Positions 1 to 43,088 of a DNA stretch of 64,000 nucleotides are shown one piece after another (positions within the stretch are counted from its first letter, which is position 1; every line of letters starts with the position of its first letter). This DNA is from Callorhinchus milii. Taxonomy: Eukaryota. The DNA lies in NCBI RefSeq assembly GCF_018977255.1, contig NW_024704765.1, positions 3,906,001 through 3,970,000 of the forward strand, read 5' to 3'. The notes under the pieces are model-generated. The model did not search any database and was not told the DNA's origin. It worked only from the letters and a program-made list of their open reading frames with translations. Made by a program: the position numbers and the translations under genes.

Positions 1-1198
1 CTGCCGTTAAATCGTAGGGGGCTGATAGTGAGATCTTTAAGGAGACGGAGCAGGAGCCCGTCATGCTGGAAGGATCTACCCCCGATGTCTCTGGCATCGC
101 GGTCCCACAGAAGGTCCATGTCGGCTTGATCGAGGTTCAGATCACGCAGAGTTCCAGCCCGGGATGCCTCCTCCGCCTCCATGTCCGAATCTTCTGAGGA
201 CAAGTAGGGACCGTATTCATCTTCCAGGAGCCTGGATAAGATCTGAAAAGACATCATTAAAATATTTAAGGGGGTAATAATCCCTTCAAAAAAAATAATA
301 ATTTGCTCACTCAATCCACGGCTATTTGTGGGAGCAATTGGCTGCCGTGTTTCGCCCACAATATAATCAGTCAATTCACTTTACAGTATATTCCGTGAAG
401 CACTTTGAAACATCTCGAAGATGTGATAAGTCGCTATAACAAATGAAAGGATTATTAAACAGTTGAACAAGATAATAATTAAAATGCCTCCGGCTTGGAT
501 TCTGGTTACAGCTTTAAAGCTACTCTTAGTTTGAGTAGAAAGGAAGAGAAGGTGCAATAAATGACTGGTCAGTTGGAAGAACGAGAATCCGTTTCCTTCC
601 TCACTGAATTTGGTTAATATCTCCGCTCTAAATCAGCCCTCTGGTAATTCTTAATAGTTAATCACCAGTTAACTGGTTGTGTTTGAATATAACTTGTTCA
701 CTGGACATTTTCAGCTGCTAATGATAATAATAATCTTTGCATTTGATATAGCTACTTACCACGTCTATGAGACACAGAATACACTGTAAAGCAAATTGAC
801 TCGAGATTTTGTGGGCGAATTGTTTCACATTTGATGAAATACAATTATTAAATATTCTATGACTGAGGAGGATAATAGAGTAATAGAATATTATCTCCTT
901 GGTAATAGTGTCTGATGTGTCCCTCTTTCTCCAGAGGACAAATTAGAAGCTGAAATACATGTAACTAGTCACCGTTAGAGCAGCAATCTCTCCAATGTTA
1001 CATGACCACAACAGCCACGAACTCCATCGCTGACTCAGTGCTCACTCTTTGCTATTAGTTTGAATAATCAGTTACTAATAATCATCGTCTTTCTCTCACC
1101 TGGAGACTGTCCACACCTGTTCTGGGTCTCGCCTGGACTTGGACCTGGATCAGGAGGAGAAGCATGAGACCACAGGGGAAGCTGACGTGTGCGTTCAT
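1..1198 (-). CDS. NPPC: C-type natriuretic peptide precursor, copy A (CNP3-like, shark-type); 3' end lies outside the window. Coding exons 1198-1100 and 242-<1
   Basis: Exon 1 MNAHVSFPCGLMLLLLIQVQVQARPRTGVDSLQ (signal peptide) ends CAG|GTGAG at 1100. Acceptor ttttcag precedes 242. Exon 2 reads ILSRLLEDEYGPYLSSEDSDMEAEEASRAGTLRDLNLDQADMDLLWDRDARDIGGRSFQHDGLLLRLLKDLTISPLRFNG, closely resembling shark proCNP and paralogous to copy B. The mature ring is not in the window. Confidence 0.9.
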
Positions 1199-1269
1199 CT
1201 TCTCTTGAACCTCTTGGTTGGCAATGGATCTGTCGCCCTCGTCCTCTGGTTCTGTACCTCTCACTCCAA

Positions 1270-1298
1270 GACTTTTATCTCCACTCACACTGACGTCA
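1270..1298 (-). promoter_or_regulatory. Core promoter of CNP copy A: GATAAAAGTC TATA-like/GATA box plus palindromic CRE TGACGTCA
   Basis: Plus-strand acttttatct at 1271-1280 (GATAAAA on minus), about 75 nt upstream of the ATG. TGACGTCA at 1291-1298. The same GATAAAAGTC occurs at the equivalent position in copy B. Confidence 0.6.
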
Positions 1299-39500: not shown

Positions 39501-39878
39501 ACACTCACTCACGCACACACTCACACACTCACTCACACACTCACTAACATTACACACTCACTCACACACTCTCACATTCACTCTCTCTCTCTCTCACACA
39601 CACACACACACAGAACGACTTTATAATACCATCTATTCTGCTGTTCTCACTCGAAAAATCCTCCTGTGGTCCCGTTTCGTTTCGTTTCATTTCATTCCAT
39701 TCGGTCAGTTATTTACCTGTGACAATCACAGAGGGTATCCGAGTCCTCGGCTCCTGTCTTTCCGGACACATTGACTGCCCTGAGGGGGGAGTGGGGCGAC
39801 TGTCCTTCAGCTTTAGCTGCAGAGGAGGGGGGGTCACAGGCCCTGTCCTGTCTGTTGGCTGCGGACATCAGCAACACA
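30564..39878 (-). CDS. Two-TM, kinase-less membrane guanylyl cyclase with NIT-like sensor domain (at least ~760 aa if the frameshift is repaired). Exons 39878(ATG 39868)-39717, 37422-36283, 34266-34132, 33559-33385, 33088-32990, 32861-32770, 32656-32519, 30911-30564
   Basis: All junctions are GT/AG and phase-compatible. Catalytic motifs: [94 protein letters not shown]. They are preceded by the signalling helix [21 protein letters not shown] and [20 protein letters not shown]. One frameshift lies between 36720 and 36837. Confidence 0.85.
32990..34266 (-). CDS. Guanylyl cyclase catalytic-core exons (34266-34132, 33559-33385, 33088-32990)
   Basis: Both metal-binding Asp (FSDIVG, IGDAY), the guanine-specifying Glu (KVETIG) and Cys (RYCLFG), and the transition-state Asn/Arg (VNTASR) are present. 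Confidence 0.95.
35863..36225. repeat. Low-complexity CA/C-rich then G-rich tract in the GC intron
   Basis: (cacacacagccccccc)n-type repeats followed by G runs. Confidence 0.85.
36283..37422 (-). CDS. Large exon of the guanylyl cyclase gene: TM1, ectodomain, TM2, coiled coil (contains apparent 1-nt frameshift)
   Basis: Acceptor ttcctcag before 37422 (phase 2, AG|A=Arg from the upstream exon) and donor CAG|GTAAAA at 36283. The two overlapping ORFs 36717-37373 and 36232-36750 are in different frames. The 1140-nt exon is 1 nt short of preserving phase. Confidence 0.8.
39072..39612. repeat. (CTCA/CA)n microsatellite interrupted by assembly gaps (38924-39071, 39211-39461)
   Basis: Seen directly. 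Confidence 0.95.
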
Positions 39879-42841
39879 CTGAGAGGGAGAAACCACAATC
39901 CTCCCACAGACTCGGGATGTGGTCCTGCAGACACCTCACTGGGACTCTCTCCTCTCGTCCCACACACTGGAAATTGGGAATGTGATGGGGAGGGAGTGTG
40001 GGAATCCCCAGTGCTGGACCACCGCCTCCCAACACAGCATCAGGACCAAACCTCCCAACCCGACTGTGTGGATGACAGAGCGCCGGAGAGGAAGGGGTTA
40101 AGGGGAGGGGGGGGCAGAGAGATGGTGGGATGGGGAGTGCGGAGGGAGGGGGTCCCTAATACAGGAGGAGGAGAGGGAATGGAATAGGAATGGGAAAATA
40201 TGACGTGGGAAAGGATAGGAAGAGATGCAAATCTTGCTCTCTGCAGCCTCTCAGCCAGGACCCTGTCAACAGGAAATCCACCATCTTATTCCACTTTGTA
40301 TATTAATAATAATTATTACAATAATTAATAATTATTATTACTATGTTGTTTCTGATTTCTGCCTCAGTCTCCCCTAAGCTATATGTAAACCACTTCAGGT
40401 CCCAGGCAGGGAATTCAAAACTTATTGCTTTTTATTCGTATTTAATATTCAATTTTATTTATCCGCACGCCTCTGTTTACCTTAGCAGTTGTTAGTCGAT
40501 TGGCGGATCGCTTTCCTGGGGCAATAATTCCTTTTTTAAAAATGTGGGTCGCTCAATCCACGACCGTTTGTCGGACACTGCTGTGCGCAATTGGTTGCCG
40601 CGTTTCGCCCACAAAACACACAGTCAATCCACTTTAAATACATAATGTGAAGCACTTTAAGACATCTTAACAATGTGATAAAGCGCTATATTAAATGCAA
40701 GGATTATTATTCTACTCTATTTCTCAGATTCTCTCCTCTGACCTTAGGAATGAACTCAACAGCACAAGTCCAAGTGGTTTTGTCTGAAATGTTTAACATT
40801 TTTTTCTCCCATTTGAGGATGCATGACTGACCTCTGACCATACTCTTAAAATAGCAATCCTCCTTTTGTTTTCTCTGTTCTCCTTTTCTTGCGTGGGGAT
40901 TTTCTATAAAAATAATAATCCTTACATTTGATCCAGCACCTTTCAAGTTTGGAGGACATCTGAAAGCGTTTCACAGGATGTACCGTAAAGTGTAGCAACT
41001 GTGTATTTTTGTAGATGATCACGGCAGCTAATTTGTGCACAGCAATGCCACACAAACAGCAATGCCACACAAACAGCCTTAAAGTGAGTGACCAATTTTA
41101 TTTGGGATTGTTAGCACAATCATGAGTCCAGAGTTAATCAGAGCTAAGTAACAAATGAAGTAGTGTCTCACGAGTTGGAGACCTTTTATTTAACAAACCA
41201 CATGTGTGGTGTGAATGTCGACAATGATTACTCTGTCGCCGTTCTAACCTTTTAAGCAGATGTGAGGTAAGCCACTGCTTCAATCATGCGGCATCTTCAA
41301 AGGCAGGAAAACATACATATAAATCATGGCGATTCATTGTAATGCAACTTGTACTTCAATGTATCAGGTGCAATAAGGTAGCATTCAGAAATAAGGGGCA
41401 ATTTTGTATTCATGCTGTAATGGTTTGGAAAGCCTCAGGATAATAGGCCTGTTGGCACTCTCGCTCCGGGATTCTGTTGTCAGTCACCCAGCAGAGGATT
41501 TAAAGATGTGTTATCAAAGGAGAGAGTTCTACACTGATTTGTTTAAGTGATGGTGTAGACGAGTGTGCACTGTTTTGCTAAACTGCGTTTTAGGTGAATG
41601 AATAGAGGTGGAGTCTATCCGTGTTTGCTATGTCCTAATCTACAGGAACATTGGAGCCATTTGTTTGTCTTTGATGAGTAAACCTCAAGATCTCTGTACA
41701 GATTCACCTGAGGTCTTTTTGACTTCAGAGTGATAATGACCCTGTTCTGCCAAAATGCTGTTGTGAGATGAATTTGCAACAGATATTCCCAAATGCATTC
41801 TGGTCAGTGATCAGGACAGAGGAGCCCTACTTCTAACACTACAGAGTCACTACTTGCAGTGCTATGTTGTTTTGTATTGGGAATGAACAAGATGCTAACT
41901 TATGAGCTGTACATGTGAATATAATAATCCTTGCATTTGATATAGCGCCTTATCACGTCATTGGGGCATCTCAAACGCTATTCTGTTGGGCAAAACGAAT
42001 GATTATTGATCAAGATTTGCCCAATTCATTAATTGATCTGCAACCCCAGCCACAAAGGGAATAAAAACTTGCTCGGCCAGAGACACCTGACTTGCTGGTC
42101 GTGAAGACAGCCATCAGGTCTGCAATTGTCCTTTGATAATTTCCGGCTTAAAGAATTTGGGGGGGAGGGGGGGGAACAACCCTTAATAATAATCCTTCCA
42201 TTTGATATAGCACCTTATCACATCTTTGCAACGTCTCAACCCTTGAGGAACATGTTTCAGTCTAATTCGGTTTGTGGAGTTGAGTGGGGCCTAAACTCGA
42301 TCACTAATAAAAAAAAATTAAGGAAATTCAGATGGACTTGTCTCTCTTGCTTGTTGAGTGATCTCCTCCACTCATTGAATTGCTTCTGTTTTGGGCTAAG
42401 AAACTCCCCCTGCACTGTGGTCTTTGCTGGCAGTTCCTATTCAAGGCTGAATATTCATCCTGTTCTGTCATTGCACTGTTCTGATCAGCTTGTTCTCTAA
42501 TAATACAACACTCTATTACAAGCCCTTTTGATGTTGGAGCTGGAGAGGCCAGGAGCTCGGAGAGCCAGCTGAGCCCCACTAATAACCCAAACAAACAATT
42601 TACTGAGACAGACGTAGAGCATCACTCTATGCTAAATATTATCTTTGTATTACATTTTACAATCAGCTCTTGTACACTGCTCTGGGGACCATGAGCTGAC
42701 CAGTCTTTAGCACTTCTCTAACACAGATCTGTCTAGCTGAAATCTTAGCTCTGTCTAACCACTGTCATTCCTTTGGTCTGTGAGCTACGAGTCTTACATT
42801 TGGTGTTAAATAGAAAGATTGAGTGCAAATGTTCCCATTAC

Positions 42842-43088
42842 CTTAATGGGGGAAGACTGTGTTCAGAGGCCTGGCGGTGTTTGCAGAGAGATGCTCCCCT
42901 GCTGGAATGGGTTACTAGTAAGCCAGGAATTCCTGATGCTGTGATTGGGAATGTGGGTATTCCTGAGAGCTGAGATCCAATGTGTGAAGGGCTTGCTTCA
43001 TCCACAACGCTCACGATCATGTACGAAACTGATTCCCACGGCAAGGCTATTACCTCTGCTTCAGGCACATGAATAGTAAAAACTGTTG
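42842..43088 (-). CDS. Candidate additional upstream coding exon of the guanylyl cyclase gene (VFTIHVPEAEVIALPWESVSYMIVSVVDEASPSHIGSQLSGIPTFPITASGIPGLLV...)
   Basis: Open, protein-like frame bounded by acceptors ttttag (exon from 43088) or caacag (from 43082) and donor TTA AG|GTAATG at 42842. This phase-2 donor joins in frame to the acceptor tctccctctcag|T GTG TTG CTG ATG at 39878. In-frame ATG at 43020. Confidence 0.5.

Follow-up and report, generated by a model that had tools for sequence, protein, structure and literature searches.

Why does a guanylyl cyclase gene lie beside two natriuretic peptide genes? The question is raised by a window of 64,000 nt from Callorhinchus milii (GCF_018977255.1, NW_024704765.1, 3,906,001-3,970,000, forward strand), the whole of which was analysed. 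Two C-type natriuretic peptide genes (CNP-A and CNP-B), the guanylyl cyclase gene (GC) and KIAA2013 follow each other on the minus strand, and a PLOD-family gene comes next on the plus strand. The initial annotation had read the order as CNP-A, CNP-B, GC, KIAA2013, PLOD1, with GC and both peptide genes on one strand and about 24 kb between GC and CNP-B. Mapped exons and Pfam matches bear out this order and the common strand, and the GC stop is 23,717 bases from the CNP-B ATG, with GC upstream. By a rough estimate, one of about 9 cyclase loci would adjoin one of 2 natriuretic loci by chance with a probability of about 0.2%, if about 20,000 genes are assumed; this pair was chosen after the fact, and housekeeping neighbours are equally well kept in the block. 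Probably, GC is an intact and conserved two-span cyclase derived from the animal NIT-domain guanylyl cyclases (NIT-GCs), in which a small extracellular molecule and not CNP would trigger synthesis of cyclic GMP (cGMP), a nitrite- or nitrate-like anion being the most likely candidate named; its place beside the peptide genes would then be inherited synteny, with loss of the gene in placental mammals.

The GC model was obtained by mapping of a stingray orthologue and checking of splice sites. It has eight exons (39868-30564, minus strand) with GT-AG introns throughout and encodes 759 amino acids (aa). A segment of about 260 aa, the ectodomain, lies between two hydrophobic spans (residues about 64-87 and about 347-378); it has five N-glycosylation sequons and six Cys conserved in 110-116 of 116 orthologue rows. 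This arrangement of transmembrane span (TM), sensor, TM and cyclase agrees with the layout of animal NIT-GCs given in the available text of PMC7400543. From the motif of the second span (TM2) to the cyclase motif there are 69 residues in 128 of 132 proteins, which leaves no room for a kinase-homology domain, and no kinase Pfam match was found between TM and cyclase in the GC orthologues. Neither the ANF receptor family (PF01094) nor the H-NOX haem domain was matched in any of the 11 full-length orthologues scanned. HNOBA matches the orthologues with its C-terminal 40 positions only, as a short HNOBA-like coiled coil that leads straight into the cyclase.

Judging from its residues, the cyclase domain belongs to the class III guanylyl cyclases: the metal-binding Asp pair, the guanine-specifying Glu and Cys, and the transition-state Asn and Arg are present, all with well-established roles in this class. 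None of the catalytic and guanine-specifying motifs is missing from the model, and 96-97 of 97 cyclase-domain proteins (isoforms included) have them in full; a KGKG motif is found in 88 of the 97. Compared with seven orthologues, GC is 86-91% identical in the cyclase and 20-52% identical in the ectodomain. In the natriuretic peptide receptors NPR1 and NPR2 (GC-A and GC-B), an alpha/beta ANF-receptor ectodomain is combined with one TM and a kinase-homology domain. GC shares with them a coiled coil and a class III cyclase domain, and like them is a membrane guanylyl cyclase, but it has none of these three traits, and two hydrophobic spans stand in place of the single TM that follows the N-terminal signal peptide of these receptors. 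With soluble guanylyl cyclase, the receptor of nitric oxide (NO), it has in common the HNOBA-like coiled coil directly before the cyclase, but it has two membrane spans and no H-NOX haem domain. Large insertions are found in the lizard orthologue models P0142 (Anolis sagrei) and P0046 (Podarcis); the ectodomain of P0142 includes a long Ser/Thr/Asn-rich repeat, in a flexible loop that precedes the last helix.

The ectodomain of GC is predicted to fold like the NIT nitrate-sensor domain. An AlphaFold2 model of the ectodomain alone (pLDDT 82.6; 117 sequences) is all-helical, without strands, and is best matched by the NIT fold, a double four-helix bundle. When this model was compared with 48,161 chains in VIA-align, the NIT domain of NasR from Klebsiella (PDB 4AKK) ranked first, with Z 12.1 and rmsd (root-mean-square deviation) 5.0; 212 of 257 residues were aligned over the whole NIT domain, while the next match reached Z 9.1 with 148 residues aligned. 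The same entry was first in Foldseek (probability 0.99, TM-score 0.55), where other entries had probabilities of 0.20 or less. With a longer model, 4AKK was again first in VIA (Z 10.9), and in Foldseek it was first by probability and fourth by E-value. In the ESM Atlas, 28 of 30 matches of the gar orthologue ectodomain were in NIT sets, the best at 0.91 with 173 shared features, and the nearest named sets of the full-length protein were arthropod NIT-GCs (0.98). NasR as a whole is a different protein, a cytoplasmic RNA-binding antiterminator that has both arginines of the nitrate site. No NPR ectodomain is present in the fold-match lists of the GC models, where being unlisted is no exclusion. 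By layout and predicted fold GC is thus NIT-GC-like and not a natriuretic peptide receptor; it is not filed as a formal family member, because PF08376, the NIT family of Pfam, was not matched.

As far as the available texts go, Moroz et al. 2020 state that 'vertebrates lost NIT domains' (PMC7400543), and a Platynereis preprint counts Chordata among the phyla without NIT-domain cyclases (bioRxiv 10.1101/2023.08.02.551600). A vertebrate cyclase with such a layout and fold would, if true, represent an unrecognised class of vertebrate cGMP receptors, and the family is open to testing in zebrafish, Xenopus or chicken. Compared with the animal NIT-GCs as described in the accessible parts of these two sources, GC has in common the layout, the predicted NIT fold, the putative Gln/Arg half-site and the nearest Atlas clusters, but it is a vertebrate protein, PF08376-negative, with six conserved Cys, an apparently lost second half-site and a single copy. 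No paper was found in a literature search for this vertebrate GC gene or for a cyclase between NPPB and KIAA2013, and the fish gene symbol si:ch211-215j19.12 returned 0 papers.

The nitrate site of NasR is asymmetric: of its two arginines, one belongs to a Gly motif and the other to a Gln motif, according to the part of PMC8199190 that was available. A Q-x-x-R motif is found in 101 of 116 orthologue rows of GC and may correspond to the Gln/Arg half of that site. The second half-site (G-x-x-R) was placed by an assumed spacing, and at this place Arg is found in 9 of 116 rows and Gly in none; another Arg or Lys is present at model position 146 in 102 of 116 rows. From these rows, the second half of the nitrate site seems to be lost in GC, which makes another ligand quite possible. 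As the ectodomain is predicted to be NIT-like, its likely trigger is a small molecule, not one of the hormones encoded next to it. An N-oxide anion is put forward tentatively on two grounds, conservation of the Gln/Arg half-site and the response of Platynereis NIT-GC1 to an NO donor, mediated by its NIT domain; in the available text of that preprint, NO- or nitrite-dependent cGMP production is shown only for this one protein (bioRxiv 10.1101/2023.08.02.551600). Another small molecule has nearly even chances, and a protein or peptide is a little less probable than the anion. The ligand is the weakest step of the explanation preferred here. GC likely descends from animal NIT-domain cyclases, and it would most likely act as a homodimeric two-pass receptor with an outward-facing, disulfide-bonded ectodomain. 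The ligand would bind between the two helical bundles of the ectodomain, and the helix shift driven by it would be relayed via TM2 and the coiled coil to the cyclase, which would then make cGMP. If true, GC would be a candidate for relaying nitrite or NO-derived signals without haem.

The ectodomain region is matched by 232 proteins, and the taxonomic range was read from 120 of them. Among these 120, orthologues of GC come from sharks, rays, sturgeons, bichir, gar, teleosts, frogs, turtles, lizards, snakes, alligator, birds and wallaby. Besides the tammar wallaby, opossum and koala keep the gene, as found in a search with the wallaby protein. No placental GC was present among the 7,995 scored candidates of that search or among the 120 of 232 matches listed, and no monotreme GC was seen among the matches listed. 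GC had been proposed as an ancient member of the block that mammals lost. Its antiquity agrees with orthologues from sharks to birds, but the loss was drawn too wide, because the three marsupials retain GC, and only placentals and monotremes are without matches among those listed.

A CLC chloride-channel gene, by its position presumably CLCN6, lies about 11-15 kb beyond the left window edge, past CNP-A. The green-turtle gene model P0051 fuses KIAA2013 to GC in the same order as in the window, and two killifish models (P0106 and P0173) fuse GC to RCC2, suggesting that GC may have another downstream neighbour in a teleost. Most likely, GC beside the CNP pair is inherited synteny, part of an old CLCN6-NP-GC-KIAA2013-PLOD1 block (NP, natriuretic peptide genes), from which placental mammals likely lost GC. 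The linked cGMP module of the initial annotation is probably old synteny, and no test made here speaks for a link between GC and the peptides. The site of GC corresponds to the interval between NPPB and KIAA2013; the mouse Nppa/Nppb enhancer cluster occupies that interval, likewise on this side, and the placental loss thereby becomes datable. A more far-reaching proposal is quite unlikely: jawed vertebrates up to marsupials would keep in the ancestral cardiac natriuretic locus a haem-independent membrane sensor of nitrite or NO-derived anions, a NIT-GC co-expressed with the locus, and placentals would have lost the gene, with the Nppa/Nppb super-enhancer now in the interval.

GC might also be no CNP receptor and yet share cardiac enhancers with the peptide genes, which would co-regulate it with them as a heart-linked cGMP module; this is unlikely, but it has some points in its favour. 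GC lies directly upstream of the peptide pair, and the order KIAA2013 then GC recurs in the turtle model. In mouse, some 22 kb upstream of Nppb and hence on the side of GC here, there is the Nppa/Nppb enhancer CR9; however, its perturbation left Plod1, Clcn6 and KIAA2013 unchanged, and in mouse and rat the Nppa/Nppb enhancer leaves neighbouring genes unchanged, according to the available text of bioRxiv 10.1101/2025.10.13.682224. The killifish GC-RCC2 fusions also speak against co-regulation, although small NP genes may lie inside an intron of such a model. Counts of cardiac motifs near the GC start, made with no shuffle control, show nothing distinctive and are uninformative. At CNP-B, four runs presumed to be RNA covered only a repeat and one stray piece, and no RNA run was listed for GC exon 2; this speaks neither for nor against expression.

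The derivation from NIT-GCs has several results weighing against it, in addition to the scarcity of Arg and lack of Gly at the second half-site. By sequence, PF08376 was found in 0 of 13 ectodomains, no NIT domain was matched in the genome of C. milii itself, and the ectodomain matched no NIT among PDB sequences. When 1.84 billion cluster representatives were searched with a profile of the ectodomain, only 25 clusters matched; none of the 25 is recognisably invertebrate, and all that could be given a name are from jawed vertebrates. Foldseek gives 4AKK an E-value of only 0.13. For helical bundles, VIA advises caution below a Z of about 13, and the value of 12.1 falls slightly short of this; the ectodomain is 10% identical to NasR. 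In a tree of 12 orthologues and 7 paralogues from the own genome (145 columns, vertebrate rows only), the GC family stands apart from the paralogues on short branches with a weak support of 58, in an alignment-biased analysis. Outside the genome of C. milii, synteny rests on two fused gene models. The missing Pfam match, the profile without invertebrate matches and the Foldseek E-value would suit an unrelated helical bundle that resembles NIT through a common arrangement, the gene then being an orphan cyclase of separate origin. Such an origin is decidedly unlikely, as the 4AKK match covers the whole domain and exceeds the second-best by 3 Z units and 64 residues, the NIT signal in the language-model features does not depend on the structure model, and the domain layout is identical and the Q-x-x-R motif present. 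FADD matches in the PDB-sequence search (E 0.02 and weaker) were taken as chance. In the tree, the cyclases at C1:85345476 and C5:16888368 group together with 100% support, apart from the NPR-like and retinal-type paralogues.

Both peptide genes are intact, and they are of CNP type because both precursors stop at the last Cys of the 17-residue ring, without a C-terminal tail. CNP-A has 139 aa, and its ring and stop are located just outside the window, at C24:3905925-3906017, as read from the neighbouring stretch. CNP-B has 133 aa with a Pfam ANP ring. The two are identical at 69 of 139 alignment columns, and the ring of CNP-B differs from that of CNP-A at two positions. A third ANP-family locus of the genome is on C11. 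As far as described in the accessible text of PMC5852170 and PMC11000733, elasmobranch CNP and the CNP-3/Nppa/Nppb locus share with this one the tail-less ring ending in Cys and the site between a CLC gene and KIAA2013/PLOD, but here two tandem copies are present, one of them with the two ring substitutions; Nppa and Nppb derive from CNP-3 by duplication (PMC5852170).

It had been suggested that GC is a non-canonical receptor for one CNP paralogue, most plausibly the divergent CNP-B, and was kept beside its ligand. The adjacency on one strand and the two ring positions fit this suggestion, and a disulfide-rich ectodomain with half of its anion site apparently lost could have taken a new ligand. 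Still, it is very unlikely. The ectodomain is predicted to be a helical bundle of NIT fold with no ANF-receptor fold, and the protein lacks both an ANF-receptor domain and a kinase-homology domain; elsewhere in the genome, on C1 (about 57 kb apart) and C15, there are cyclases that do have ANF-receptor domains upstream of them on the same strand. Ectodomain identity as low as that among the orthologues would also fit poorly with a highly conserved peptide ring, and shark CNP is reported to use a GC-B-type receptor and a clearance receptor, by the available text of PMC11000733. At C1:128928893-128961824, two ANF-receptor exons are placed head to head on opposite strands, about 32 kb apart; one is upstream of an NPR-like cyclase and the other may belong to a clearance receptor.

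That GC is a pseudogene in C. milii, as a 1-nt deletion in exon 2 of the window could suggest, is scarcely credible and was ruled out, since haplotig C90 has an open GC frame of 760 codons with GT-AG introns and the extra base is present in 3 of 3 covering runs (four runs compared). The frameshift is most likely an assembly error. C90:40001-110000 is a second copy of the whole region and most likely an uncollapsed haplotig, because it is 99.2-99.96% identical over about 70 kb; apart from it, the GC ectodomain is single-copy in the genome. The base missing at window position 36788 is one letter in C90 and another in the three runs; the frame is preserved with either, and the site of the assembly error may thus be polymorphic.

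The initial annotation had extended GC to 43088, whereas the shark orthologues place the best-supported coding start at 39868. A start at 43088 has no homology support among homologue N-termini: when the first 130 aa of 120 GC homologues were compared with 37451-47000, no match had an E-value below 0.005, and the 30 best all lay outside the open reading frame (ORF) at 42838-43128. An ORF at 42328-42621, matched weakly by frog N-termini (E 0.026), was set aside in favour of the exon at 39868-39717, whose donor is clean and which can be aligned with shark N-termini. Coordinates of all features are given in Table 1.

Table 1. Features of the Callorhinchus milii window, in window coordinates.
Feature	Position	Strand	Support
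CNP-A exon 2, pro-segment; the 17-residue ring and the stop follow beyond the window edge	1..242	-	gene model and adjoining stretch
CNP-A exon 1, signal peptide, ATG 1198	1100..1198	-	GT-AG
CNP-B exon 2, ring ends at Cys, no tail	5760..6071	-	Pfam ANP E 6e-14
CNP-B exon 1, ATG 6847	6758..6847	-	gene model
GC exon 8, C-terminal tail and stop	30564..30911	-	orthologue mapping and splice sites
GC exon 7, cyclase end, KGKG motif	32519..32656	-	orthologue mapping and splice sites
GC exon 6, cyclase	32770..32861	-	orthologue mapping and splice sites
GC exon 5, cyclase, 11-residue motif and NTASRMES motif	32990..33088	-	orthologue mapping and splice sites
GC exon 4, cyclase, ETIGDAY motif	33385..33559	-	Pfam Guanylate_cyc
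GC exon 3, cyclase start, FSDIVGF motif	34132..34266	-	orthologue mapping and splice sites
GC exon 2, TM1, ectodomain of about 260 aa (six conserved Cys, Q-x-x-R, predicted NIT fold), TM2, HNOBA-like coiled coil	36283..37422	-	
1-nt deletion of the window assembly in GC exon 2	36787..36790 (near 36788)	-	frame intact in haplotig C90 and 3/3 covering runs
GC exon 1, best-supported start; putative cytoplasmic N-terminus	39717..39868	-	GT donor phase 2; aligns from residue 1 with basking-shark P0003
KIAA2013 (DUF2152), two coding exons	47021..50388	-	Pfam match
PLOD-family gene exons (part), begins at about 58410	58410..60374	+	GT_PLOD matches

Beyond the CLC gene, 8-60 kb to the left of the window, there are exons resembling genes that we take to be EMC1 and UBR4; in human, MTHFR is presumably found there instead. 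Large tandem arrays of ANF-receptor-domain exons were seen on C11 (0.57-0.87, 4.5, 9.8-9.9 and 18.9-19.0 Mb) and at C24:4.14-4.16 Mb, and these are probably class C G-protein-coupled receptors of V2R/OlfC type. Both CNP promoters have GATAAAA at the site of the TATA box (window about 1270-1305 and 6920-6935, minus strand), in which we presume a resemblance to the BNP promoter, and in the CNP-A promoter a perfect palindrome of the cAMP response element (CRE) is located just upstream of it.

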